64,000 nt of DNA from Dictyostelium discoideum (Eukaryota), in contig CM000150.2 of NCBI GenBank assembly GCA_000004695.1, positions 3,616,001 to 3,680,000 of the forward strand, given 5' to 3'. The translations under genes and the position numbers were made by a program. Of this stretch, positions 3,101 to 28,256 are shown piece by piece; position 1 is the stretch's first letter; each line of letters opens with the position of its first letter. The notes under the pieces are model-generated. The model worked only from the letters and a program-made list of their open reading frames with translations, searched no databases and was not told where the DNA came from.

Positions 3101-6100
3101 TAGTTTAGCACCATCAACTGCGAAAATCGGAGATACTATTACAATTAATGGTGAAAATCTAGATAAAGACAACTATGATGTTTATTTTAAAATCATTCAA
3201 GATTCATATTCTGAAGTCAAAGCAACAATAACATCAAGAACAGCAAATACTGTAAAAGTAATCGTTCCAAAAGGTTTTGGTGGTGCCTTTGTTCTCACTC
3301 AAAATAGAATCAATAAGTTAATCTCTAATAATCTTGAATTTTCATACCCATCATCAACCATTGTCAAAGTAATTAGTCAACCATTTAGTACAGGTATCAT
3401 CAATAGATTCTTTGTCATTGGTGAATATTATCGTTCATTAATAACCAATATCACCATTTATCCATACATCGATAATATTGAAAAAGAAGCAATTTATTGT
3501 GAAATTGAAAAGTATTGTCCAAGTTCATCAAAAATTCCATCAATTCCAGGATCAGAAGTAGGTCATCCATGTATTGATTCAACAGTTTACTCTGAGAATG
3601 CCCAGTTTTTCAATTATTCCAAGTATGATGTTTTTGTTTGTATCAAATCATCATTAGGTGTTGGAAGTGGTATCATTAAATTCCCATCACAAACATTTAC
3701 ATTCGCATACTCTTATAAAGCACCTCTCTTATATTATGCACCACCTGGCGCTCGTATTCCAACTGATGGTGGTAGTTTTCAATTGAGTGGCAAAAACTTT
3801 CCACCAACACAAGAAATCATTGATCTCGGTTTGAACACATCTAAAATCATTTGGAATAATGATAATTTTGTTACATTCAAAGGAACAAATCTTACAAATA
3901 CCAACATCAATTGGAAGAGTTCAGATACGATTGTATTTATTGCGCCACCAGGTTTTGGTGAGTGGATCACCGTTTCAGTAACTGTCGGTAAACAAGCGTC
4001 AACAACTACATACCCAGGTGATTTAGATGAACGTCCAACTGGAAATTATACTTTGCATTATCTATTTCCAACAATTGTTGATTTATCAGCAGTTCCAACT
4101 GATGGTGGTGAAACTATAATAAAAGGTGCCAACTTTATTCCAGCTATCTTTGTAGGTCAAATTAATAATCAATCATTAATTGGTTCGCTACATTCAGTCA
4201 CGTTTAATAATGTTTTATCTCCATCATGGACATGGATTAACTCAACACACGTAAAAGCCATCGTACAAAAAGGTATTGGTACAATCTCTCCAATGGTAAG
4301 AGTTGGTGGTCAAAGATCAGATTTGTACCAACTTTTTGCAACATTATACAAAAAACCTGAATTAGATAATAAAAAATATGAAAACTTTGCAAATAGTAAT
4401 ATTTTAATAACTGGCTCTAATTTTGTACCAGTTGGTGTTTCAGCAGGTTCATCAAGTTCTGTTAAAATTGGAGGTATTCCTTGTAACTCTGTAACATGGG
4501 TAGATTCAAAATCTGTTATTTGTAATGTACCAATTGGAACTGGTGATAATTTAAATATCCAAGTAACAGTTGGAGATCAACAAACCGAATTAAATGATTA
4601 TTTCTCATATTTAGGGCAATGCGATTTCCTCTGTAGCGATTTATCAAATTTAGTAAGTTTTTAAACATTTTAATTACAGAGAAAAAAAGAAAAAAAAAAC
4701 TAAAAAATACTAATATATTATCATTTTTACCTCAAAGGAATTAGAAAAAGTTATTAGAGAGAATAAAAAAGATTTAAAGAGTACTCTTTTATTAACAGGC
4801 GTATGTTTAGAACAAATCAAGCAATATAATCTTACATATATTAAAAATAAAATTGAATCAAGTTGGATTGGAAATTCAATTATTAATGATTGGACAAGTG
4901 GTAAATTCTATAACTATTTCAAATCATCAGAATCATACTCAACAGTTAAAACACTTGCAAAATATATTACTCCAAAGAATCCATGTATTTATGATAATAA
5001 AAGAGTAAAGAATTCATTAGATTACCTTTTCGAAATCAATTCAGATATTTTCCATTTAATTGAACTTTCAATTTCATCAAAAATCAGTTATCCAGATTCG
5101 CCATATCAAACTTATTTCTATAAATCATCAAGTAACCCACAGTATGGTCTTTCAATTATTACATTTGATTCAGCAATTTGTAGCTTTACAGAATCAACTA
5201 TTCAAGACTACCAAAGTGGAAAAGTATTACAATCATGTTCAATCATTCCAATTATAAATCAAGTAATTAATCCAACAACAACACTTCAAGCACCATATCA
5301 ATATTCACTTACAATTATTGGTAGATTATTTGATAGTTCAACTAGAATATTTTTATCAGGTTATGAATGTCCAATCATTGGTAATATTGTTACAAATCAA
5401 AATGATTATATTCAAACTCTTAGTTGTTCAGTACCATCAGAAATCAAATCATACTCAGCCTCTCCAATTAGTTTTTACAATGGTTATAGTGAAAATAATA
5501 TATATAATTTCTTGTTGGATTTTAAAAAATCATTCTTTTTTATATATCCAATTTCAACAGTAACTCAAATTCAATACCCATCAAGTGGTCCAATTCAAAT
5601 GAATTCTGAAATTAAAGTAATTGGTTTTAATTTCTTCCCATATGGTATTACAAATCCAAACCTTAAAGTTTTTATTGATGATCTTGAATTAACTGATACT
5701 ATCTTTGGATTAACAAGCATAAATGGAGTTGATTCATTTTCATTTATTGCTTCTGGTTTAGGTTCTTTAAAGTATGTAAAAAAAAAAAAAATTAAAAAAA
5801 AAATTAAATTAAATTATTAATATATAAATTTCTTTTTAAAAGTTACATTCAATTATTTTATAGTAATAGTTTACCAATGATTATAAAAAATGGTGTTAAA
5901 TTAGAATTTTCATTTGAAAGACCAATTATTAATAGTATATTACCAACAAATGGAGATTACAATACAAAAGTTACAATTAATGGTAATAATTTTAGAAAAG
6001 GTCAATCAGTAAAAATTGGAGACTTATTAGTAAATGATATTGAATTCATTTCAAATCAAAAGATTATTGTTTCAGCACCATTTGGATTTATTAATGGACT

Positions 6101-9100
6101 TGTAGTTGTTTATTCAGATGATCAATACAGTTTAGAAGAAATATCATTTAGTTATCCTTCACCAATTATAGACCAAGTCATTCTTTCAAATTATGAATCA
6201 AAATTAAACACAACAGGTACAAATTATTTCACAGTAATAGGTAGAGGTTTAGGTACATACATTGCAGAACAAGTCGATATTATTATTAACCAAGAGTTTT
6301 ATGCAAGTTGCGAATTCGATTTCTGTGAAAGTTTAGAAATTATTGAAGATATAGATATAAAAGATCAAGGAATTTGTCAATATTTAAAATATAAAAATTA
6401 TCAATATATCAATGAAAACTTTGATATATTAAATTGTATTTTAGCTGATTCAATTGGTAAAGATAAATCAATCAGTATCAAAATTTCAGAATTCCAAAAC
6501 CAAACTTTCACCTACTCTTATTATGAACCATGGATTGAAAAACTAACACAAAACTCTTCATCAGCAACAACTGATGGTGGTGAAGTAATCGTTATAAATG
6601 GTTACAACTTTTTACCATTCGAAAATTTAAGTCCATACTATGAAAACAATGAAACTATTGCACAATGGTTAAATCAATCAGAAATATTAATTGGTGAAAG
6701 CTATCTTTGTCAATCAATTAATTGGACCAATTCCTATGAATTAAATTGTACAATCCCACCGGGAATTGGTGTTAATCATACAATCATTGTAAAAGTAGGC
6801 CTTCAATCATCAAATCATACTGATTATTTGTATTCTTACAATCCACCAAAACTTGATACAATCAATAATTCCACCAAAAATGAGACACATTACTATTCTT
6901 CAACAGATGGTAACAATGAAATTATAATAACAGGTAATAACTTTATTCCAAAAGAGTTATCAGATCATTACAACCAGAATGAAAATAAAACTATAAATTC
7001 AATACTATTAGGTAAACAATATTGTAATGAAACTATTTGGATTAATTCAACAATAGTTAAATGTAAACCATTAGCAGGTATTGGGTCAAATTACAAAATA
7101 ATCATTAAAGTTGGCAATCAAAATTCAAACGAAACCGTTTACTTCTCATATGAGAAGCCAATTTTAGATTTAAAGAATTACACAGGTTCAACAAATGGTA
7201 ATACTGAAATTACAATAACAGGTATCAACTTTATTCCAAAACAATTAGCAGATAATAATAATTTCAATCAATCAGAGAACTATATAATGATTGGTGATAA
7301 TAAATGTAATGGAATTATTTGGATCAATTCAAGAACAGTTAAATGTAAACCAATATCAGGTACTGGTACCAATCATAGAGTTATCATAACAGTTGGTAAT
7401 CAAAACTCAAATGAAACGGTCTACTTTTCATATGATAAACCAATTTTAGATATTAAAAACTATAGTAGTCCAACTGATGGCAATACTGAAATCACAATAA
7501 CAGGTGAAAACTTTATCCAAAACTATAATCAAGAAAAACATAATGAAAATGATAATTTCGTTAGAATCGGTGAAAATAAATGTAATGAAACAAAGTGGAT
7601 AAATTCGACAACAATTAAATGTAAAATAATTCAAGGTATTGGTTTAGATTATAAAATAGTTGTAACAGTCGCCAATCAACAATCAAATGAAAATGTTTTC
7701 TTTTCATATGAAAAACCAATGATTGACAGTAAAACACTATTAGCATCAACCAGTGGCAGTGAAACTATTAAAATTACAGGTACCAATTTCATTCCATCAA
7801 TTTTAGTAGAACATTACAACAATATAAAAAATAAAAATAACTCAATAAATTCAGTTACTATCAATAACGAGTTTTGTAATGATATTGCATGGATTAACTC
7901 AACAGAACTAACATGTAAACCATTAGCAGGAGTTGGAACTAATCATACCATATTCATTTTAGTTGGAACTCAAAAATCAAATCAAGTAAAATCATTCTCA
8001 TATAAACCTCCAAAGATTGAAGAGTTTAAATACTACACAGCACCAACACATTCCAATAAAATTATTACTATAACTGGTGAAAACTTTATTCCAATCGAAT
8101 TATTATCAAAAGACAACAGCAATAGTTCAGTACTTATTGATAATATAAAATGTGAAGAAATCAAATGGATTGATTCTACAAAAGTTTCATGTCAAGTTCC
8201 AGTAGGTCAAGGTAAAGATTTATCGATTAAAGTTAAAATTGAAAATCAAGAAACTGAAGAAAATCAACAATTTTCATATGATAAACCATTTATTCAATCA
8301 ATCAATCCAAATAAAGGAAGATGTAATCAAGAAGTATTAATTACAATTCAAGGTGATAGTTTTGGAAAGAGTGATCAACTAATTAAAATTGGTAATAACG
8401 AATGTCAAGATATTCAATTCTATCCAAATCATACATTTACATGTAAAGTTCCAATCGTGGAGAATTCAATTAAATCCATTGTTTTATTAAATGTTGGAAA
8501 TCAAGATTCAAACGATAACATTACATATAAATACTATGGACCACCAGAAATTAAAAGTATTGGTTTACCATCATATCTTTCATTCAAAGGTGATGATTTA
8601 ATAACAATCATTGGTAATAACTTTATAGAATATGATGATGGATCTGATGAAATTGTTGTTAAATTTAATAATGAACCAACAGCTATCATTGAAAAAACAG
8701 AAACATCTATTAAAATTAAAACTCTTAGTGGTGATGAATTTAATTTACCAATTGCTGTAGAATTAAATGGTCAAATAAGTAATATCGATACTTCATTCGT
8801 TTACTCAAATCCAATAATTGAAAGTGTAACACCATCATCAAGTAGCTCAAAATCAAATACTCATATCATCATTAAAGGACATAATCTTGGATACTTAACA
8901 AACACTCCCAAAATTACAATTGGAAGTAGCAATTGTTTAAATATCAATACTATATCTCCAAATGAAGTTCGTTGTATAGTGTTGAAATCAAGCGCAGGCG
9001 CCAAACAATTAACATTAACCTATAAAAGTTATCAACCAACCTATTCACAATTCACTCATGATGATGACAGTGATAGCCACGATGACAGTGGAAGCCATGA

Positions 9101-15590: not shown

Positions 15591-17444
15591 ATGAATATAA
15601 TAAAATCAAATAAAAAGATTAAAAAGAATAAAATTAATAATGAAAATTTAGATAATAGTAAATTATTTTTTAAAGTATGGAGAAATTCATATATAAGATA
15701 TCAAATTTTTCAACATTTAAGATTATATAATATTCATAAGAATCAAATATCATTAACAAATGAACAATTAGAAGAATATAAATATTTAAATTATTGTAGA
15801 TCAATTTATTTAGTTGGTGATAAAATTGATAGTTCATTTTTAAAGGATAAATTACCAGATAGTGTTGAATGTTTATCATTTGTTTATTATTTCAACCAAC
15901 CGATATTAAATAGAATCGATTTCAATTACAATTCAAATTATCATTGTAATTTGAAATCGATAACCTTTGGATACGACTTTAATCAAGAAATTAAAGAGAC
16001 TGCACTACCAAGATCATTAGAGTCTTTAAAATTTGGTAGATTATTCAATCAGGAGTTGACCGAAACTACATTTAAAAATCAAATTAATTTAAAATCAATA
16101 GAATTTGGTGCAAAGTTTAATAATAAAGGTAAACCAATAAAGGTTGGAGTATTTCCAAAATCCATTGAATCTTTAAAGTTTGGTTTTCATTTTAATTCAT
16201 TCTTTGATGCGCATTCATTACCTAATGGTTTAAAATTAATTGAATTGGGTTCAAATTATTATCAAGATTTAAATCAAGAGGATATATTACCACGTTCACT
16301 TACAAGTCTATCATTATCAAATGAATATAAAATTCCAATCACTTTAAAAACAATTAAATCATTACCAAACTTAATGCATTTAGATTATCCAGGTTTCATT
16401 TTACCATTTGGTTCGAATGATGAAGTTTTACCATCTTTAAAATCACTTCGTAGTTTTATTGAATGGAATGATGATGATGATGATGGTGATGTTGGTGATG
16501 GTGGTGGTGGTGGTGGTGGTGGTAGTAGTAACTCAAAATTACCAAGTTCTTTAAATAAATTAACAATATGTGGTACAAATAAAATTTTTAAAAATATTTC
16601 AATACCAATTGGTTTAAAGGAAATTTATATTAAATCCTTATTAACATTTGATTCATTTCATAATGGTAAAGATAATGGTGATGTTGACATTTCAGATTTA
16701 CAGTTAGAGAAAATGACAATTGATATTCAAAGAGTGTTTGCAGAAGATATAAAACTTGGTTTACCAAAATTCTCAATACCAACATTTAAAAAATTGGAAA
16801 TTCTTTATTTAAATAGTGAATTCACTCAAGATATCTTTCCATCCACTATTACTTCATTAACATTGGATACCTATAATATGGTTTTTAATTCATACTCTCT
16901 ACCTAAATCATTAAAACATTTGAAATTACCAAATTATAATCAACCATTCACCAATATTGATTCATTTCCATGGAGAACTTTAGAGGAATTAGAATTTGGT
17001 ATGCCATTTTTTCAATCATTCCCACCATCGATATCTTTTAAAAATTTAAAATCTTTAACTATTGGTATTGATTGTTTTATGTCATTCTCAAAAAATTCAA
17101 CCGTTGATACTTTGTTCCCAGTTTTAGAATCAATTGTTTTTATAATTCCTCAAGAACTTAAATATATAATTTCAACCGATTGTTTCTTCCAATTATTACC
17201 TATTTCTATAAAGCATTTAAAACTTGGAAAGTATGGATTCGATAAACCATTCAATGATGAATCAATCATTTGGCCACCTAAATTAACAACTATTTCAATA
17301 CCTAACAGAATAATTCATTTAATTTTTGACAAAAACTTTTCATTACCACATCAATTAAAAAGTTTAGTTTGTGACAGGCTATCTGCTGTTGATGAATTTT
17401 ATTTTAAAATTATAAAAGTTTGTCCAGAAATAAAATTTTATTAA
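15591..17444 (+). CDS. FNIP-repeat-containing protein
   Basis: ATG at 15591, single exon. The 617-aa product carries many tandem repeats of ..LxSLxFGxxFNQxIxxxxLPxSLxxLxFG.., the Dictyostelium FNIP repeat. Confidence 0.8.
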   Translation: MNIIKSNKKIKKNKINNENLDNSKLFFKVWRNSYIRYQIFQHLRLYNIHKNQISLTNEQLEEYKYLNYCRSIYLVGDKIDSSFLKDKLPDSVECLSFVYYFNQPILNRIDFNYNSNYHCNLKSITFGYDFNQEIKETALPRSLESLKFGRLFNQELTETTFKNQINLKSIEFGAKFNNKGKPIKVGVFPKSIESLKFGFHFNSFFDAHSLPNGLKLIELGSNYYQDLNQEDILPRSLTSLSLSNEYKIPITLKTIKSLPNLMHLDYPGFILPFGSNDEVLPSLKSLRSFIEWNDDDDDGDVGDGGGGGGGGSSNSKLPSSLNKLTICGTNKIFKNISIPIGLKEIYIKSLLTFDSFHNGKDNGDVDISDLQLEKMTIDIQRVFAEDIKLGLPKFSIPTFKKLEILYLNSEFTQDIFPSTITSLTLDTYNMVFNSYSLPKSLKHLKLPNYNQPFTNIDSFPWRTLEELEFGMPFFQSFPPSISFKNLKSLTIGIDCFMSFSKNSTVDTLFPVLESIVFIIPQELKYIISTDCFFQLLPISIKHLKLGKYGFDKPFNDESIIWPPKLTTISIPNRIIHLIFDKNFSLPHQLKSLVCDRLSAVDEFYFKIIKVCPEIKFY

Positions 17445-19911: not shown

Positions 19912-20563
19912 TCAATTCTTTTCAATGGAATATCTAAATAATTAAAATAAAAAAATTTAAATTTAAAAATTAAATGACATAGAATAAAATGTTTGATTTA
20001 CACATTTATATCCCCTATAAGAAATAAACAGTTAATAATAGTTTTGTTTGTGGAATTAATAATAAAATGTAAATTGATTATTGTTTTTTTAATGAAGCAA
20101 TTAAATAAATAAAAAATTGTAATTAATTAAATGAATTTTTGGAAGTTGTTCGAATGTGTAAACTAGTTTTACTTGATTACTTTAACGTTGAGTTGTTGGG
20201 ATGAAAGTGTAACAAGATCTCAAAAAAATATCTTGTTAATACTAATATTTATTTAATTTTATGAAATGTTCTAAACAGAACATTTAAAAATAACTATTAA
20301 TATTGAATTGATAATTCAATATTAATTATTACTAACTTAATTCATTTTAATAAATTGTTTCATTTTATATAATAAACTCACTAAACACAACTAAACAATA
20401 ATTCAAAAATAAATAATAATAATTTAGAATATAGTTTTGTTTCAACATTTTGTTATGACACATACAATTCAGAAAATAATAATAATTTATTTTATTGTTT
20501 TGTTTAAAGGGGTTTTCTCCCGTTGTAATTAAATTTAATTAATTTTAAATTAAATTTAATTTT

Positions 20564-20601
<38 letters not shown>

Positions 20602-20760
20602 TTGAATTTCACAAAAGTTTTCATAACAGATATTAGATACCAGATATTAAAAATGCCACACACAAAATCACCATATAAAATAATAATATAAATTTAAAAA
20701 TAATTTAATTAGAAGAGAAAATAATAATTAAATTAAAATAATATAATATTGTAGTTTAAA

Positions 20761-20905
20761 TTGGATCTAACCCTATCGGCCGAGGTTGGAGTAGTTAATA
20801 GATTTGAGTTCGCTCAAATCTAAGGACTATAAAAGGAAACTAGGTTTCCAATTCAACCTCAGTAGTAAATATATACAAATAATAAAAACACGATAGGGCT
20901 ACGGT
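20761..20905. ncRNA. Candidate structured ncRNA (about 140 nt, four helices) in a GC-richer island
   Basis: Nested complementarities are CCCTATCG (about 20770) with CGATAGGG (about 20894), and GAGGTTG with CAACCTC. Two local hairpins are ATTTGAG-ttcgc-CTCAAAT and GGAAAC-tag-GTTTCC. GC content is well above the flanks. There is no ORF. Confidence 0.25.
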
Positions 20906-21011
20906 CATTAATTAATTTTGTGTACATTTATTTCTAAAATAATTAATCATTTTACTTTAATAATAGAATAAATAAATAATTAAATTTTATTAAATAATTT
21001 ATTTTAAGAGA

Positions 21012-21461
21012 ATGTCAACTAATAATAACGAAGATATTGATAATGATGAATTGCAACAACAGGATAATGAGGAACAACAACAACAACAACAACCACAGGT
21101 ATCAACATTCAATGAACAGCAACGTCAGATAAGGGAACAGCAGCAGGTAATAGATAAACAAAATCAACTTCTTCAACAACACATTCAATTAATAAATCAA
21201 CAATCTCAACTACAATTGAATAATCATACGACACCACCATCATCACCCAACATTACAACACCAATAACTTCAGCAGCAATAACCAACACAATAAAGAAAT
21301 CATTAGGAAAAATTAACACTGATGATACCGACCACCAGTTGTTACAGAAAGTGATAATGATCTTCCACAACAAACCAATTCAAAAAAACAACATTACATT
21401 TATTATCAATGCCCAAAATTACTCGAAGAAAATTTTAATATCTTCAAATTTATATTTTTAA
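21012..21461 (+). CDS. Hypothetical Q-rich, coiled-coil-like small protein (149 aa); could equally be a fragment of a repeat-element ORF
   Basis: The ATG-initiated ORF has a less AT-rich composition than its surroundings. It sits among repeat fragments (20100-22440). I recognised no homolog. Confidence 0.3.
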   Translation: MSTNNNEDIDNDELQQQDNEEQQQQQQPQVSTFNEQQRQIREQQQVIDKQNQLLQQHIQLINQQSQLQLNNHTTPPSSPNITTPITSAAITNTIKKSLGKINTDDTDHQLLQKVIMIFHNKPIQKNNITFIINAQNYSKKILISSNLYF

Positions 21462-22214
21462 ACCAATCCAATTATTTAAAATAAAAAAAATAAAAAATAA
21501 AAAATTTTATACAATTTTTTTAAATAGTTTTTTTTCTTTATTATTTAATTATTATTAAATGTGTTTTGAAATGTAATTCTATTTAAAAATTCTAAAGGTA
21601 ATTGAAGTTTAGGGAATGATATCGTCATCTAATCTGAATGTCATAGTGCATAGATAAATCTTTCTTTTCTCTGACATAAGATTAATATGATCATTTTTAT
21701 TTTCCTTTGAGTGATAGTATTGATATGAACATTAACTTTTCTAAATGATATAGTGCATAGATAAATCTTTCCTTTCTCTACCATTTGATTGTGTTATGAT
21801 TCATCTCAAATTACTTAATTTTCTTTTAAAGTAACCACTTATAAATTCCTTTTTCTATATTTTTAATTGATAAATTAGATTATTTATTTATTATTATTTT
21901 TTTATTTATTTTCAATTTCTTACTTTTGTTTCTCTTTTATTCCATCTTAAATCATTTTATTTCTTTGTTTTTGAAATAATACTATTTCATTTTATTTGAT
22001 TTAATTTTTTGGTTTTTTGGAATGAAAAAAAAAAAAAAAAAAAAGATCAATTTATACTCTTATAATTTTTTATTATTCCTATTTAATATTTATTAGATTT
22101 TTCCTAAAAAGCAATTTTTACTTTTTTTTTCCTTTTTTTTTAATTGATCAAAAAAATTTCTAAATTGGAACTTATTAGATAATAAAAAATGGTTAAATAT
22201 TGAAATTTATTTAA

Positions 22215-22252
<38 letters not shown>

Positions 22253-22833
22253 AATTTTAAAATTCCTACTCAAACAATGAATCAAAAAATTAAATAAATA
22301 AAAAAAAAATAAAAATAAATTATACAGATGTAATAATAATTATATTTTATATTTATTTTACCTTTTAATTTTATTTTATTTTATTATTTTAATTTGGTAA
22401 TATAACTTTTCTGATTTTTTCTATCTATAATTGGATATCAAAAAACAACCTGCTGGTAAATTTTTATTTTTTAACATCCAAAGTTGTGGTCATCTAAGTT
22501 AGTGGTGTAAATATTACCTCTGAAATTTTTGAGGATCGTACAGTTTGAATTAATTTAAGAGATTATTGTGTTCAACTTAGTATGGTTGGAGTTTTTTTTT
22601 TAATTTTTTTTTTTTAATATTAATTAATAGATGTTTATAAATTAAAGGAAATAAACAGATATAGGTTTATTTATGAATTTTAAAATACAACTATTATTGG
22701 AAAACTCCAATCATTCCTTTTTTTTTTTTTTTTTACCTGTGATCAGACCTTCAAGGAATGTCCTTGTGTCTTTTCGGCGGTGTTTGTTAAACGGTTTTAT
22801 TTTTATTATTCAATTGTATTAAATTTTTTAAAC

Positions 22834-22887
<54 letters not shown>

Positions 22888-23053
22888 ACTACTTAAATTG
22901 GAAGAGGGTTCGGAGCTGCTAGGGTTTGCCAGGCTTTGTTGAATTTGTATTTGTGAAGATCTTGATTGGTGTTTTTTAGTATTGCTTCGTCGTGTTTGAT
23001 TTTCTTTAGTGTGATGAATTTTTCAGTTTCGATGAGATTTAGTAATTCTGTTT

Positions 23054-25360
23054 CTATGACCTTTTGTTCGAATTTTGGCTCTGGTTGCTTTCATCAGTGT
23101 TGAACAATTTGTGACAGATTATCTTCCATAATTGGTGTGCTATTATTCCTATGAGATTGGGGAAGATTCTCTCAGTTCTGTTGTATTTTGATATGTCTAA
23201 GGTATCCATTGACCATCTGTGGATTTTGATGAATGATAATTTGTTAACTGTTGATATGATGGTTTTTTCAATATCTAGGATATCTTGGCATAGAGTGAAG
23301 AGGTGAGAATAAGGGTCTCTGAATAGGTGGCCACAGATCTTGCATCTGGTGTCTCTTTCGTGGTTGATACCTGGAAGTGATCTTGAGAAGAATCTGAAGA
23401 GGGTGTTTCTACCTTTTTGGTGAGAAATGCTGTTGATGTTTATGAATACTTTGGGTATTGCTGTGTTGTATCTCACCGCCCATAACTTCTGCCATTCTGT
23501 TCTTCTTGGTGTTGGGTGTCTGTCTTTGATCATGAGTTCGTAAATTTCTTTCAGTTTTAGTGGTTCATCATTGTCGTTTCTTATACAGTCTGGAAGTTCA
23601 TTTATCTTTGGATGGTTTTGGTAAAATTTGACTCTGAATACACCCCAGTGTCTGCACATATCGTTGAGGGTTGAAGTGTGGGCTTTTTTTCTACTTAATT
23701 GCTCCATGTACCATTCTTGTAAGGTATTGTTGTTGTTGTTGTAGTTGTTATGGAGTAGCCTGTTCATGTACCAGATTTTGAATGCTATATGTCTTAGTTC
23801 TATATCCCATAATTTTATGCCTCCTTCTTTCCAATCTGCATATGCTCTGTCTATTTTCATCATAGTTTTGTATTTTCTCTCTTCTGTATATGTATTCTTA
23901 ACTGAGGAGAATAAGAACCATCTGGTCATGTTATTGATTTCCTCAATTTGTTCTTCATTTAGATTATCCATGTATTGATGGTATGTTAATTTGGATAGAA
24001 CGTATGTTTTGAGAATTGTCATCTTTGCCTTCATCGTTATTGCTTGTGATTTCCATTTGATTAGATTGTTTTTCATTTCTTGGATTAAAGTGTTGTATTT
24101 TGAATTTAAACCTGTTTTGGTGAAATTGAGGCCAAGATATCTTTCTGGGACTGTAATCTCTTGGAATGGTAGATCGTGTGGTTTATCTCCTATTGCTATC
24201 ATTACTGTTTTCTCTTTGTTTAACGATGATGATGTTGCTGAGCAGTACTTTTGGATTTTAGTATTAATTTTCATTAGTTCTTCTGTGGAGTTTGTAAAGG
24301 TTGCTATGTCGTCAGCAAATGCAGTGAGTTTTCATGATTTGGAATTTGGTAGAGTGAAGCCTTTGATTGTATTATCATTGATGATATCTATTAGAAGTGG
24401 TTCTAAAACTAGAGCAAAGATTGTTGGTGATATTGGGTCTCCTTGTTTTGTTCCTCTTCTGATTGTTATTCCATTGACTAAAAAGTCGTTGATCTTTATT
24501 TTGTTTTTAGTATCTTTGAGTAGGTTTAGTAGGATCGCTGTGAATTTTGGGGGGATACCAATATGCTCTAATGTTCTTGTGATACTCTTGTGGCTGATTG
24601 AATCGAATGCTTTGTTAAAATCGTAAAAGGTAATGAGTGTATTGTTCTTTCTTTTGTTACTTATTTCTATTACTTCCTTCATGATCTGAATATTGTCTTG
24701 GATGAACCTGTTTGGAACAAAGCCTTTTTGAAATTTGTTGATAATTTTACTGGTGATATCTAATAATCTACTGTTGAGAATTTTGCTTAAAATTTTGTAA
24801 TCTGTATTGAGAAGGGTGATTGGTCTTCTATTTGAAATGTTTAGTTCATCTCCTTTTTTGAATATTGTTGTTATTACTCCTTCTTTGAATTTTGTGGGGA
24901 TTTCTTTCTTATTTGTGAGGAGGTCGTTGAAAGCTATAGTCAATATTCTTGCTATTGAGTTGATGTGGTACTTGTAGAATAGTGCATTGATACCGTCTAA
25001 ACCTGGAGATTTGTGGATACTTGAAGTTTTGATTGCTTTGGTCACTTCATGTATTCTCATCGGTCTGTCTATCTCGAGTTTCTTGATTAAATCAACGTCT
25101 ACTTCCCATTTTTCTAATAACTTCTTGTGGGTTTCTTCGTTATCTTCTTTCTCTTCATAGAATTCAACAAATCTTTTTGCTATGTTCTCTTTATCTGATA
25201 TGGTCTTATTATCTTTATCTTTTATTTGGAATATTGATTTATCTTTGGCTCTGGATTTAAGGATACTTGTGAGGTATTTGCTTGGTGTTTCTTGATGCAG
25301 GTGGAGTTTTAATTTGATATCCCATGCTTTTACCTTTTTAAAAAAAAAAACTCCAATCAT
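23054..25360 (-). pseudogene. Retroelement ORF2 reverse-transcriptase region, 5'-truncated and frameshifted between 24274 and 24332
   Basis: Two adjacent minus-strand ORFs (24332-25360 and 23054-24274) lie in different frames. The first has RT motifs (FYDFNKAFD; QGDPISP). The second has a CKICGH..C zinc-finger-like tail. Confidence 0.65.
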
Positions 25361-25463
25361 TCCTAAAAATATTTTATTTTATATTTAGAAAGGAATGATT
25401 GGAGTTTTCCAATCATTTCTAAAAATATTTTATTTTATATTTAGAAAGGAATGATTGGAGTTT
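25349..25463. repeat. Tandem palindromic hairpin units (GGAAAACTCCAATCATTCC ... GGAATGATTGGAGTTTTCC) inside the retroelement cluster
   Basis: Two units of about 55 bp with 19-nt inverted arms around an AT loop. One isolated arm is also present at 22681-22699, next to T19. Confidence 0.7.
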
Positions 25464-25467
25464 TCCA

Positions 25468-25510
<43 letters not shown>

Positions 25511-25733
25511 TGGATTAACAAGATTGATATATGTCCATCTGTGTTAATACGAGTTTTTATTTAATATTTATTTATAGGCTTATCATTTAAGCTGAAGGGT
25601 TATTTTAATCATATGAATTGATCTAAAAGATATAATATTTGGGAGAGATGATTCTGGAATACAATAGTAATTAGCTGTTGTTTTTCTTAGCTTGATCGTT
25701 GAGGTGAGAAGGATCTTAGGATCTTTGAAGTTA

Positions 25734-26549
25734 TTATGGTCTTTTGCTGATAGAGTTATGGTTGGATGACAGCTCCCTTGAATAATCGTTAAGTAGGAAG
25801 TCTATTTTCTTAAGCATTATGCTTGAGAGGATTGAGGATTTTTTTAATCTCCATCTGCGCTTGTTCATCTGTATGTTGGGTAGAGTGAAAGTGGTTGATA
25901 GGAAGTTGTGATCTGATAGAGGTATGTCGTTAATTTTTGGGGGGATTAGGTTCCTTAAGTATAATTGGCTGTAGTTGATTAAGCTATTGTTAAGGTATAT
26001 TCTGTCTAGTCTCCTTTCCAAGATTCTTGTGAGGTAATGTATCGTTCTTGAGAAGGTGGGTCTTTTATTTAGTTGGTCCATATCCATTAGGTTATTTGAA
26101 ATTCTGATGGCTTCGATTACTGTGGCCATCTCATCTGGGGATTGTGTTGTCAAGTTGCCTTGGTCATCACTTGATGTGTGATTGTCATTGAAGTCTAAAC
26201 AGTTGAAGTCGCCTGCTATGATGTCGATGTTTTTATTAGGGTTAGACGTAAGGTTGTGGTATTGGTTGTTGAAGTGTTTGTTTAGTGTTGAAGCTAGTGT
26301 TTTTCTTTTATCAGGTTGGGCCGGGGCGTATATGGCCAAGATTCTCGTTGTGGTATCTTTTATTAGAATGTCTGATATTATTAGTCTACCTTCTATTATG
26401 AATATTGGTGAGAGTTTTATGTTTTGGTTGTTGTGGTTTAGTATTCCTATTCCGTTGCCTCTGTTGGTTGCGCTAATGATGGAGCCAGAGAATAGCTGGT
26501 GTGCTTGTGTTGCGTCGGCGTTGAGTTCATTGACTATGGTTAGTGCCAA
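25734..26549 (-). CDS. Retroelement ORF2 N-terminal apurinic/apyrimidinic-endonuclease-like domain, truncated
   Basis: A 271-aa ORF with a GDFN motif typical of the APE domain of non-LTR elements. It ends in a stop, followed by a UTR-like sequence and A40. Confidence 0.6.
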   Translation of the reverse strand: MALTIVNELNADATQAHQLFSGSIISATNRGNGIGILNHNNQNIKLSPIFIIEGRLIISDILIKDTTTRILAIYAPAQPDKRKTLASTLNKHFNNQYHNLTSNPNKNIDIIAGDFNCLDFNDNHTSSDDQGNLTTQSPDEMATVIEAIRISNNLMDMDQLNKRPTFSRTIHYLTRILERRLDRIYLNNSLINYSQLYLRNLIPPKINDIPLSDHNFLSTTFTLPNIQMNKRRWRLKKSSILSSIMLKKIDFLLNDYSRELSSNHNSISKRP

Positions 26550-26653
26550 TGAGTTTGGGGGGGATTGGGATTTGATAAAGTCTGTTTTGTTTTTGAAGGA
26601 GGTGTCAGTGCCCCAACCTCTGACATTCCATTGGTTGATTTTGATTACTACTA

Positions 26654-27904
26654 TTATGAGATGATATCGATCTCCTCTTGGGAGTCGTATAGCTGCGGTT
26701 TGGATGGTGAAGGGTAGATACTCCCTATGAAGCTCTCAATGATTCCTTTCCTTTCTTTTTTGACAGGTGTCTTAGGGGTGGATGGGATGTAAGGGTTGCT
26801 TCTGTTTATTGTTGGTGAGAGTTGGTTGACTTCATTGTTTGAGTGGATTTCCTCGTTCTTGCGTTTATGTGATGGAGGGATGTTTAGTGTCTTCTCTCTG
26901 TTTTCCGAGGATGAATGGGTGTTAGTGCTCGTTTTGTTGGCATTGTCTTTTTGGATGGCGTTGGATGTTGTGGTAGTGGTTGTGGTGGGTTTGACAGATT
27001 GAGATTCTGCTGGGTTTTTGCGGGGAAGAGGTAGAGATGACTTTTTTGCTTGGGCTTTTTTCTCTTGGGTTGATTGTTTATCAGACTGATTGTTTGCTGG
27101 GTTGTTTGTTTGTTGTTGTGGTTTTGGTTGAGAGGATTTGATTGCTATCCTGTTTTGGGTGTTAGGAGGATCTGTCATCTCATCTTCTAATGGTTCCTCC
27201 GTGTTGTTTGTCTCTACTTTCTTGTTTTTCTTTTGTGAGGAGTAGGTTTTGGTGGCCGTTCTGATGGTAAAGTTTGCGATTTCTGTAATGTGTTGGCCAG
27301 ATTTCATTTGATCGCCTATTTTGCATTCTATTAGACCGAATACTATGAGGTGGTCGGTGGAGTATATAGTATTGTATATTGCATAGGGTATTTCTTCTGC
27401 AAAGGCAGTTTTGATGATGGCGTCCACTATTCCTGCCTTTTCTCTGGGAATTCTTACTCTTCTTGTGAGGACGTGGAAGTCTCTACTGGAGGTGATGAAG
27501 GTTCCCAATTTGCTTCTATCTCTAATGATATTTATGAGAGATTGTTCGTTTTTAATCATCAGGTGGATCGTTTTTCTAGTTCCTTTGCCTATGTATATCT
27601 TGTCGATTGGGATATCGTAGTTTGAGAGTGTTTTTCTCATTTCTTCTAACCCCTTGAGATCCATTTTGGGGAATTCGAGTGTAATTGGGTAGAATCCGTT
27701 GTTCTTCTCGTAGGTTGAGAGCGCAGTCATGTTCAATATGGTCTCGCAGTATTTGGAGATGTCTTTGAGGCCTATTGATAGTTTGGGGTAGGTCTCCTTT
27801 ATCTCTGCTGTTTTTGTGGAGAATTCCTTAATGAAGTTCTCCGATGCCTCGTCCATATGGGTGGAGGGGTTGGCCATTTTAGCCGCGTCTGCGTAGGAAT
27901 TCAT
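26654..27904 (-). CDS. Retroelement ORF1 (TRE-like)
   Basis: A 416-aa ORF starting at ATG 27904, directly upstream of the endonuclease/RT ORFs on the same strand. It has a Ser/Thr/Pro/Gln-rich C-terminal half. Confidence 0.6.
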   Translation of the reverse strand: MNSYADAAKMANPSTHMDEASENFIKEFSTKTAEIKETYPKLSIGLKDISKYCETILNMTALSTYEKNNGFYPITLEFPKMDLKGLEEMRKTLSNYDIPIDKIYIGKGTRKTIHLMIKNEQSLINIIRDRSKLGTFITSSRDFHVLTRRVRIPREKAGIVDAIIKTAFAEEIPYAIYNTIYSTDHLIVFGLIECKIGDQMKSGQHITEIANFTIRTATKTYSSQKKNKKVETNNTEEPLEDEMTDPPNTQNRIAIKSSQPKPQQQTNNPANNQSDKQSTQEKKAQAKKSSLPLPRKNPAESQSVKPTTTTTTTSNAIQKDNANKTSTNTHSSSENREKTLNIPPSHKRKNEEIHSNNEVNQLSPTINRSNPYIPSTPKTPVKKERKGIIESFIGSIYPSPSKPQLYDSQEEIDIIS

Positions 27905-28180
27905 CTCGATGGGATTCCTTTGAATCGGCGATTTGTAAGTTAGATCTGTAGATCGTGGTGGATTGGTGATTTTTTTTGAAAGATTGGTTAAAATTGACCG
28001 AGATTAAGGATAGAAAAGGATGAATTACTTTTCACGTGTATCTTGTATCCTCTTGATCGCGGTACGGTTTTTTCACTTTCCAATAATAGTTGTATTAAAG
28101 GTTGGTGGTGTTTGAAATCCTGCAACTCGGACCCACTTAATTTAAGGAATTGAACCGGCGATCAATTGTTTCCAGTTATA

Positions 28181-28185
28181 AAAAA
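28181..28185 (-). terminator. Pol III oligo(T) terminator of tRNA-Thr
   Basis: TTTTT lies immediately 3' of the tRNA on the minus strand (plus-strand AAAAA at 28181-28185). Confidence 0.7.
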
Positions 28186-28256
28186 GGCTCCTATGAGGAT
28201 CGAACTCATGACCTCTTCCTTACTAGGGAAGCGCAATACCACTATGCTAAGGAGCC
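28185..28256 (-). tRNA. tRNA-Thr (anticodon AGU)
   Basis: The minus-strand sequence GGCTCCTTAGCATAGTGGTATTGCGCTTCCCTAGTAAGGAAGAGGTCATGAGTTCGATCCTCATAGGAGCC folds as a cloverleaf. The acceptor stem is a perfect 7 bp. The anticodon stem CTTCC/GGAAG closes a loop CUAGUAA, so the anticodon is AGU with U33 and A37. The T arm is ATGAG-TTCGATC-CTCAT. The variable loop is 5 nt. Confidence 0.85.

Follow-up and report, generated by a model that had tools for sequence, protein, structure and literature searches.

A window of 64,000 nucleotides (nt) of Dictyostelium discoideum DNA (assembly GCA_000004695.1, contig CM000150.2, positions 3,616,001 to 3,680,000 of the forward strand) was found to carry, behind a threonine tRNA gene (tRNA-Thr), a composite of two TRE3-type retrotransposons that lack long terminal repeats (non-LTR). 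These elements, designated El.1 and El.2, belong to different TRE3 families (here termed X and Y, respectively), and the composite is very probably a tandem that arose by two insertions, with one of its three long A-runs being an internal A-tract of El.2 and not the tail of a further element. The tRNA gene and all features of the composite lie on the minus strand, and coordinates are those of the window.

Against a background of 24% GC for the window, the region of 22.7-28.1 kb climbs to 30-42% GC with a strong strand skew; no further TRE copies were found in the window beyond the composite. A nearby open reading frame (ORF; 15591-17441) and the AX4 gene DDB_G0269802 of D. discoideum are identical, and the composite corresponds to AX4 chromosome 1, adjoining this gene. 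An independent D. discoideum assembly (L006, GCA_054883475.1), 99.9% identical to 22 kb of the window, carries the same composite (99.75% over 6 kb), the sole differences between 22300 and 28300 being two substitutions and a shortening of two of the three A-runs (36 versus 42 and 28 versus 35). An assembly artefact is thereby excluded, and the structure is real. The material for comparison consisted of loci L001-L011 and proteins P0001-P0030. Orthologous loci were reached through relatives of DDB_G0269802 and are those of two other D. discoideum strains (L007 and L008, ~92% identity to the window) and of D. cf. discoideum (L009); the neighbouring gene of 675 amino acids (aa) gave distant matches only. 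Two ORFs of the window are both 675 aa, an equality of length that was dismissed as coincidence.

Two TRE3 families behind tRNA-Thr

The tRNA-Thr gene (28185..28256; anticodon AGT, AGU in the RNA) was identified with ARAGORN and with Rfam (tRNA, 65.5 bits), and is kept in the element-free alleles of L007 and L008. An external B-box-like motif (GGTTCAATTCC, 28146..28156) was read from the sequence 29 nt beyond the end of the tRNA, with variants of it in L008 (GGTTCGAACCC) and L007 (GGTTCAAAACC). External B boxes have a role in TRE3 targeting (PMC5911963). At the orthologous locus of D. cf. discoideum (L009, 15660-15730) a tRNA-Thr gene was not detectable; a perfect B-box-like motif (GGTTCGAATCC) is kept there, followed by two TRE3-like 3' termini.

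El.1 begins 108 bp after the 3' end of tRNA-Thr (at 28076) and on the same strand, while sister copies of its type begin ~97 bp after a tRNA-Glu gene and ~157 bp after a tRNA-Tyr gene. Integration of TRE3 takes place 40-150 bp downstream from tRNA genes and in the same transcriptional orientation (PMC5911963), with observed distances of 14-305 bp (PMC5006619 Table 1). Both El.1 and El.2 are TRE3-type tRNA-targeted non-LTR retrotransposons in the canonical position and orientation, in agreement with the original prediction, made from the sequence of this stretch, which had regarded the locus as consistent with tRNA-proximal targeting. Their architecture is that of TRE3-A, TRE3-B, TRE3-C and TRE3-D, with two ORFs, an ORF2 in the -1 frame carrying APE, reverse transcriptase (RT) and zinc finger domains, poly(A) tails, target-site duplications of variable length, 5' truncation and filler nucleotides. 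At the locus, target-primed reverse transcription has left its hallmarks in a 9-bp and a 17-bp duplication, the A35 and A17 tails, and a truncation accompanied by 9 filler nt.

The minus-strand order of tRNA-Thr, ORF1, APE, A-run, hairpin repeats, RT and A-runs had been predicted and was recovered with ARAGORN/Rfam, Pfam and TRF. Three long minus-strand A-runs are indeed present, but with lengths of 35 (25505-25471), 42 (22884-22843) and 17 nt (22734-22718) in place of 40, 40 and 19, and the spacer between the last two measures 108 nt rather than 125.

With ORF1, APE, RT and zinc finger following one another on the same strand, the locus looks like a single element of 5.3 kb, and one contiguous full-length element, in which the A-runs and hairpins would be internal features like the modules of TRE5-A, was considered as an explanation. 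Protein comparison leaves it with a negligible probability. Searches with the ORFs of El.1 and El.2 returned Dictyostelium matches only, all entered as ‘hypothetical protein’. The APE ORF of El.1 matches P0019, a 1260-aa ORF2 product that opens with exactly the stop-to-stop frame of the window and then runs on into an RT and zinc finger of its own, with P0015 likewise showing that family X has its own RT. The APE part of these relatives thus leads into an RT different from the one in the window, El.2 sharing 35% identity with P0019 over residues 405-1072 (blastx). A full-length Y copy in L002, in turn, has an ORF1 (MNFFDKLKGE...) that is its own and unrelated, as well as an APE of its own. The 3' ends of the two families differ, El.1 ends with the 3' terminus and tail of its own family, as seen at six other places, and the two elements are bounded by independent duplications. 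More than one element is accordingly present, as had been proposed. The proposal of a nested composite did not hold, with El.1 and El.2 lying in tandem and neither inside the other.

The full length of X, estimated as 2571 + 2648 = 5219 nt without the tail, and that of Y (~4650-4667 nt) can be set beside the published lengths of TRE3-A (5229 nt), TRE3-B (5279 nt) and TRE3-C (4734 nt) (PMC5006619). Only tentatively can X be equated with TRE3-A and Y with TRE3-C, and it counts against this part of our account that the names rest solely on estimated lengths. The gene IDs and product names of the database matches yielded no subfamily names.

El.1, an internally deleted element of family X

El.1 (25471..28076) is a 2.6-kb internally deleted TRE3 element, delimited by its copies elsewhere and by its own duplication. 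It consists of a 5' untranslated region (UTR; 27905-28076), an intact ORF1 of 416 aa (26654-27904), an ORF2 remnant with the APE domain (25734-26735), a deletion junction at 25750/25749 with TAT microhomology, a remnant of the ORF2 C-terminus and 3'UTR (25506-25749) and a tail of A35 (25471-25505). The APE-containing ORF (26735-25737, -1 frame; Pfam Exo_endo_phos, E=1.6e-5) overlaps ORF1 by 79 nt, and a -1 frame relation of the two ORFs has been reported for TRE3-A (PMC5911963). The 5'UTR had been described as GC-rich, which holds in that its 38% GC is high, though only relative to the background of 24%; it does not adjoin the tRNA as closely as supposed, since the B-box-like motif and older DNA intervene in the 108 bp before it. 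A 9-bp target-site duplication (TATTGGAAA) was read at both ends of the element (5' copy at 28077-28085, 3' copy at 25462..25470), and past the 3' copy the flank runs into sequence that completes the arm of a 33-nt palindrome described below. The 3' end, ...CAATCTTGTTAATCCAATATT followed by A(25-35), is the same at six other X copies in unrelated flanks.

In comparison with full-length X copies (L003, L001 and L005), El.1 was found to lack 2648 nt between ...CCATAACTCTAT and CAGCAAAAGACC..., giving the junction-spanning sequence CCATAACTCTATCAGCAAAAGACC. This deletion takes out the RT and the zinc finger and shifts the frame, so that the product ends in ...SNHNSISKRP before a stop codon. The identical junction occurs in four copies, namely those of the window, L002 (3570-6157), L005 (3560-6150) and L010 (3559-6147), with flanks that differ among all four. 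Three of these lie within ~160 bp of different tRNA genes (Thr for the window, Tyr at 157 bp for L005 and Glu for L010), and the L002 copy, preceded by other TRE fragments, is found ~1.1 kb beyond a tRNA-Phe/Pro pair. Separate target-site duplications could be read for the copies of the window, L002 and L005. The junction-sharing copies are 99.0-99.4% identical to the window copy over ~2.6 kb, compared to 96.6-96.9% for X copies that are full-length or otherwise deleted, and ORF1 (416 aa) is intact in three of the four.

The presence of one junction at four loci with different flanks identifies El.1 as an amplified deletion derivative, which bears out the earlier suggestion that the copy with ORF1 and APE only was internally deleted. 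A single deletion followed by retrotransposition would be the simplest account of this lineage, which appears to be young. As RT is missing from El.1, the enzyme must come from elsewhere, and the lineage is presumably non-autonomous, borrowing RT from its full-length relatives. A parallel exists in TRE5-A.2, a non-autonomous derivative of TRE5-A that lacks ORF2 and is mobilised in trans by full-length relatives (PMC5391098). Both are internally deleted, retain ORF1 and both ends, and occur in multiple copies at authentic target positions. In contrast to TRE5-A.2, the El.1 lineage belongs to the TRE3 group, still has the third of ORF2 that encodes APE (open over 303 aa in three of the four copies) and has its integration sites downstream of tRNA genes instead of upstream, and its mobility is presumed by analogy.

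Another deleted X copy was seen behind a tRNA-Leu gene in L011, where a second and different deletion class (3523-6465, ~2.9 kb, protein junction ...YISA/ITLEYIKK...) also has a 38-bp duplication of its own 5' end. Another X copy (L011 6458-8769) begins directly within the poly(A) tail of this first one.

El.2 and the bipartite 3' end of family Y

El.2 (22718..25337) is a 5'-truncated element of family Y, recognised by homology to the full-length Y copy of L002 and starting at the equivalent of approximately residue 400 of ORF2. It retains the RT (~24125-24859; Pfam RVT_1, E=1.3e-26) and a CCHC motif (~23287-23346, read from the sequence), with the ORF2 stop at 22893-22895. The original prediction of a truncated and frameshifted RT proved correct as to the truncation and as to the existence of a frameshift, a 1-nt deletion at ~23086; this lies near the C-terminus of ORF2, however, and the break in the middle of the RT is a nonsense codon, being an in-frame TGA (24332-24334) where other copies have TTA/Leu. 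Downstream of the stop follow an A-run of 42 nt (22843-22884), a terminal module of 108 nt (22735-22842) and a final A-run of 17 nt (22718-22734).

A target-site duplication of 17 bp (GGAATGATTGGAGTTTT; 5' copy at 25347-25363, 3' copy at 22701..22717) surrounds the element, the number of chance matches expected for this pattern in the window being 0. Between its 5' copy and El.2 are 9 filler nt (TTTTTTTAA, 25338..25346), with homology to the Y copy of L002 beginning only at 25337. Between the two copies of the duplication, RT, A42, the 108 nt and A17 form a single unit. Y copies in L002, L003 and L004 show the same arrangement after the ORF2 stop, with GTAGTAGT, A(25-40), 108 nt (99-100% identical) and A(16-21), and in all, four Y copies with unrelated flanks carry A(25-42), the 108 nt and A(16-21). 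This conserved unit, together with the enclosing duplication, indicates that A42 is an internal tract and A17 the real tail. That the terminal A-run is the priming tail also follows from a mini-insertion in L005 (8078-8126), in which the 49 nt of the end of the 108-nt module and A19 are flanked by a 15-16-bp duplication of their own (TGTTATATTTGTATT).

These results bear on the idea of three successive insertions, one for each A-run, in which the 108 nt and A17 (given as 125 nt and A19) would be an extremely 5'-truncated third element downstream of the RT copy. Very short tailed fragments of TRE 3' ends do exist, as shown by the 49-nt insertion of L005 and by pieces of ~16 nt (...CTTTTAGGT plus A(n)) in L002 and L005, and the composite 3' end of Y may itself have arisen in this way in an ancestor. 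At this locus, however, the 17-bp duplication encloses both A-runs together, no duplication was found around the 108-nt piece alone, and the identical succession of A-run, 108 nt and A-run stands after the same ORF2 stop in L002, L003 and L004, in different flanks. The idea is accordingly regarded as highly improbable. The expectation of successive insertions was thus right for at least two, each with its own duplication at a poly(A) tail (9 bp for El.1 and 17 bp for El.2), but not for a third at the last poly(A), which belongs to the fixed terminal module of Y. A third and older insertion probably exists elsewhere, in the hairpin-bearing DNA that both elements interrupt.

Additional sequence and another tail beyond an internal A-tract are the mark of read-through, in which an old tail is passed and then becomes part of the element. 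The 3' end of Y resembles in this respect the 3' transductions of L1-type elements but, unlike a one-off transduction, it is fixed in the family, as judged from the five copies examined.

Two independent Y copies of 0.76 kb (L002 2715-3452 and L003 7847-8610), with different duplications and flanks, were observed to start at the same nucleotide, equivalent to 23478 of the window. Such a recurrent 5' end might stem from a hot spot of truncation, from a promoter inside the element or from a short subfamily that is propagating.

A third TRE3 family, Z, was also encountered, with ~72% DNA identity to the RT of El.2 and an end of ...ACACCGCTTTTAGGT plus A(n). Fragments of this end were located in L002 (3526-3569), L005 (3440-3482) and L003 (7781-7815), and those of ~16 nt with a tail lie between the tRNA genes and the El.1-type copies of L002 and L005. 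In L002 the duplication of the El.1-type copy encloses the Z fragment, pointing to an insertion that was chimeric or template-switched. A shared 3' end of Y and Z, for which the 100% identical C-terminus of P0001 had been a candidate, was rejected, P0001 being a chimeric gene model that joins a Z copy to a Y copy across their tandem in L003. More generally, the gene models P0001, P0006, P0008 and P0030 (L003 and L004, recent NCBI assemblies) splice across adjacent transposons or fuse transposon and host exons, with P0006 and P0030 fusing host proteins to RT. Domains that appear common to families can be annotation artefacts of this kind.

Older DNA at the locus and the order of insertion

In L007 and L008 the tRNA-Thr gene and the B-box-like motif are kept, and ...AAATTGCAG leads straight on to the equivalent of window 22350 and below, the counterpart of 28120 being joined to that of ~22351, with nothing of window 28119-22352 present. 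The extra DNA of the window relative to these alleles amounts to ~5.8 kb and exceeds El.1 and El.2. Removal of both elements and of one copy of each duplication leaves a residue of ~0.5 kb (28119-28077, 25461-25347 and 22700-22352), most of which was designated El.0. Its 5' piece (28077..28119) is absent from L007 and L008 and has the 5' duplication of El.1 as its final 9 nt. Its middle piece (25347..25461), delimited with TRF and by folding, holds hairpin and palindrome sequence, the final 17 nt being the 5' duplication of El.2. The 3' piece (22592..22700) contains the right palindrome arm and a TRE3-like 3' terminus (...CTGTTTATTTCCTTTAATTTATAAACATCTATTAATTAATATT) with a degenerate tail of A12TTA10 (22615-22592). 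The remaining 240 bp (22352..22591), unclassified, are absent from L007 and L008 and mostly absent from L009, and had no protein or DNA similarity to the collected TRE copies.

The palindrome behind tRNA-Thr (GGAATGATTGGAGTTTTCCAATAATAG) is an inverted repeat with perfect 33-nt arms (ATACAACTATTATTGGAAAACTCCAATCATTCC / GGAATGATTGGAGTTTTCCAATAATAGTTGTAT) and a loop of 28 nt, within which a 56-bp unit has been duplicated (25352-25473, 2.2 copies, 97% by TRF). The hairpin of this repeat gave a DNA fold of -29.9 kcal/mol (z=-6.9), and no Rfam RNA family was matched by it or by El.0. El.1 entered the left arm of the palindrome and El.2 the right.

Whether El.0 is an old TRE3 3' remnant that was hit by both elements stands, in our estimate, at an even chance. 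The final ~60-70 nt before its A-run match, with few mismatches and no gaps, the 3' end of a degenerate but genuine TRE3 fragment of L001, which sits behind a tRNA-Ile gene and whose upstream part has 60% protein identity to the C-terminus of X ORF2; the stretch is then followed by an A-run and, at 66 bp beyond the tRNA, is oriented as a TRE3 would be. Another explanation would recognise only two insertions, with El.0 and the 240 bp being ancestral intergenic DNA that was deleted in the lineage of the ‘empty’ alleles and the terminus a chance AT-rich resemblance. It is compatible with the negative result for coding remnants in El.0 and the 240-bp piece (blastx, tblastx) and for a duplication of El.0, with the ~8% divergence of the comparison strains, and with the presence in L009, at the orthologous position, of a loop and terminus that have diverged but can still be recognised, by which the sequence would be old. 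Given the match to L001 and the position and orientation of the A-run, ancestral DNA is considered possible but on balance unlikely.

Together, these observations are best explained by successive target-primed reverse transcription events aimed ~100 bp downstream of tRNA-Thr. A short old TRE3 3' remnant (El.0), carrying or adjoining the 33-nt palindrome, would have been in place 66 bp past the tRNA. A family-Y element would then have entered the right arm with 5' truncation, 9 filler nt and a 17-bp duplication, giving El.2, dead on arrival. In the X family, one 2648-nt deletion in ORF2 would have founded the El.1 lineage, which spread to several tRNA genes; such a 2.6-kb element would subsequently have entered the left arm, 108 bp from the tRNA and with a 9-bp duplication, pushing El.2 away from the tRNA and so producing the El.1-El.2 tandem. 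We infer that El.2 most likely preceded El.1, since El.2, had El.1 been there first, would have inserted over 2.7 kb away from the tRNA; with El.1 taken out, the 5' end of El.2 would be ~183-239 bp from it, depending on whether the 56-bp duplication had already occurred. The two disabling mutations of El.2, set against the intact ORFs of El.1, agree with El.2 being the older. Repeated hits at tRNA genes are known to form TRE-TRE tandems in which the newer copy is tRNA-proximal (PMC5911963, PMC5006619, PMC5391098). The present tandem resembles these in its orientation and in its position ~100 bp downstream from its tRNA gene, with nothing essential differing, except that the published tandems form ‘without integrating into each other’, whereas both elements here interrupt a probable older TRE3 remnant.

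Several points weigh against this account. The original distance of El.2 (~183-239 bp) would be at the far end of the published range, and integration of a TRE into another TRE is called atypical in the literature, which would apply if El.0 is a TRE3. For El.0 itself, a duplication was not found, a second copy of its palindromic part was not found in the sequences searched, and its likeness to a TRE3 terminus is confined to the final ~60-70 nt and the A-run. The strains whose alleles are empty also differ from the window by ~8%, making a deletion in their lineage a possible alternative to insertion.

Next to the composite, ~2.1 kb of the window (20130-22220) are replaced in the alleles of L007 and L008 by ~130 bp of unrelated sequence. 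This stretch, which may be another insertion/deletion polymorphism, holds an unannotated-looking ORF of 149 aa (21012-21461) and 51-nt direct repeats (21633-21683 and 21740-21790), and a part of it, equivalent to 21472-22368, is present in L009. Just outside the composite is a further A-run, the fourth long one of the minus strand (29 nt, 22220-22248); as the element-free alleles carry A16-A19 in this position, it belongs to the ancestral intergenic DNA and is no tail of the pile-up.

A bolder proposal would see in El.1 an undescribed and recently active non-autonomous TRE3 lineage, a counterpart of TRE5-A.2 with ORF1 and an APE-only ORF2 under constraint, and in the palindrome hit in both arms a preference of TRE3 for hairpin- or cruciform-prone DNA; taken jointly, these claims are improbable. 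The occurrence of TREs in tandem arrays at tRNA genes has been published and is an ordinary feature of D. discoideum, and current understanding of them is unchanged by this locus, which serves as a worked example of how tRNA genes act, in a gene-dense genome, as safe landing pads where successive retrotransposons stack. The amplified lineage with ORF1 and APE and the bipartite 3' end of family Y are useful details for annotation, possibly already recorded. A-runs by themselves are a poor guide to where elements begin and end, because an internal A-tract is part of the normal 3' end of one family, and the ORF1 and APE deletion lineage might offer a natural template for tagging TRE3 in a retrotransposition assay, a use to which TRE5-A.2 was put for TRE5-A.

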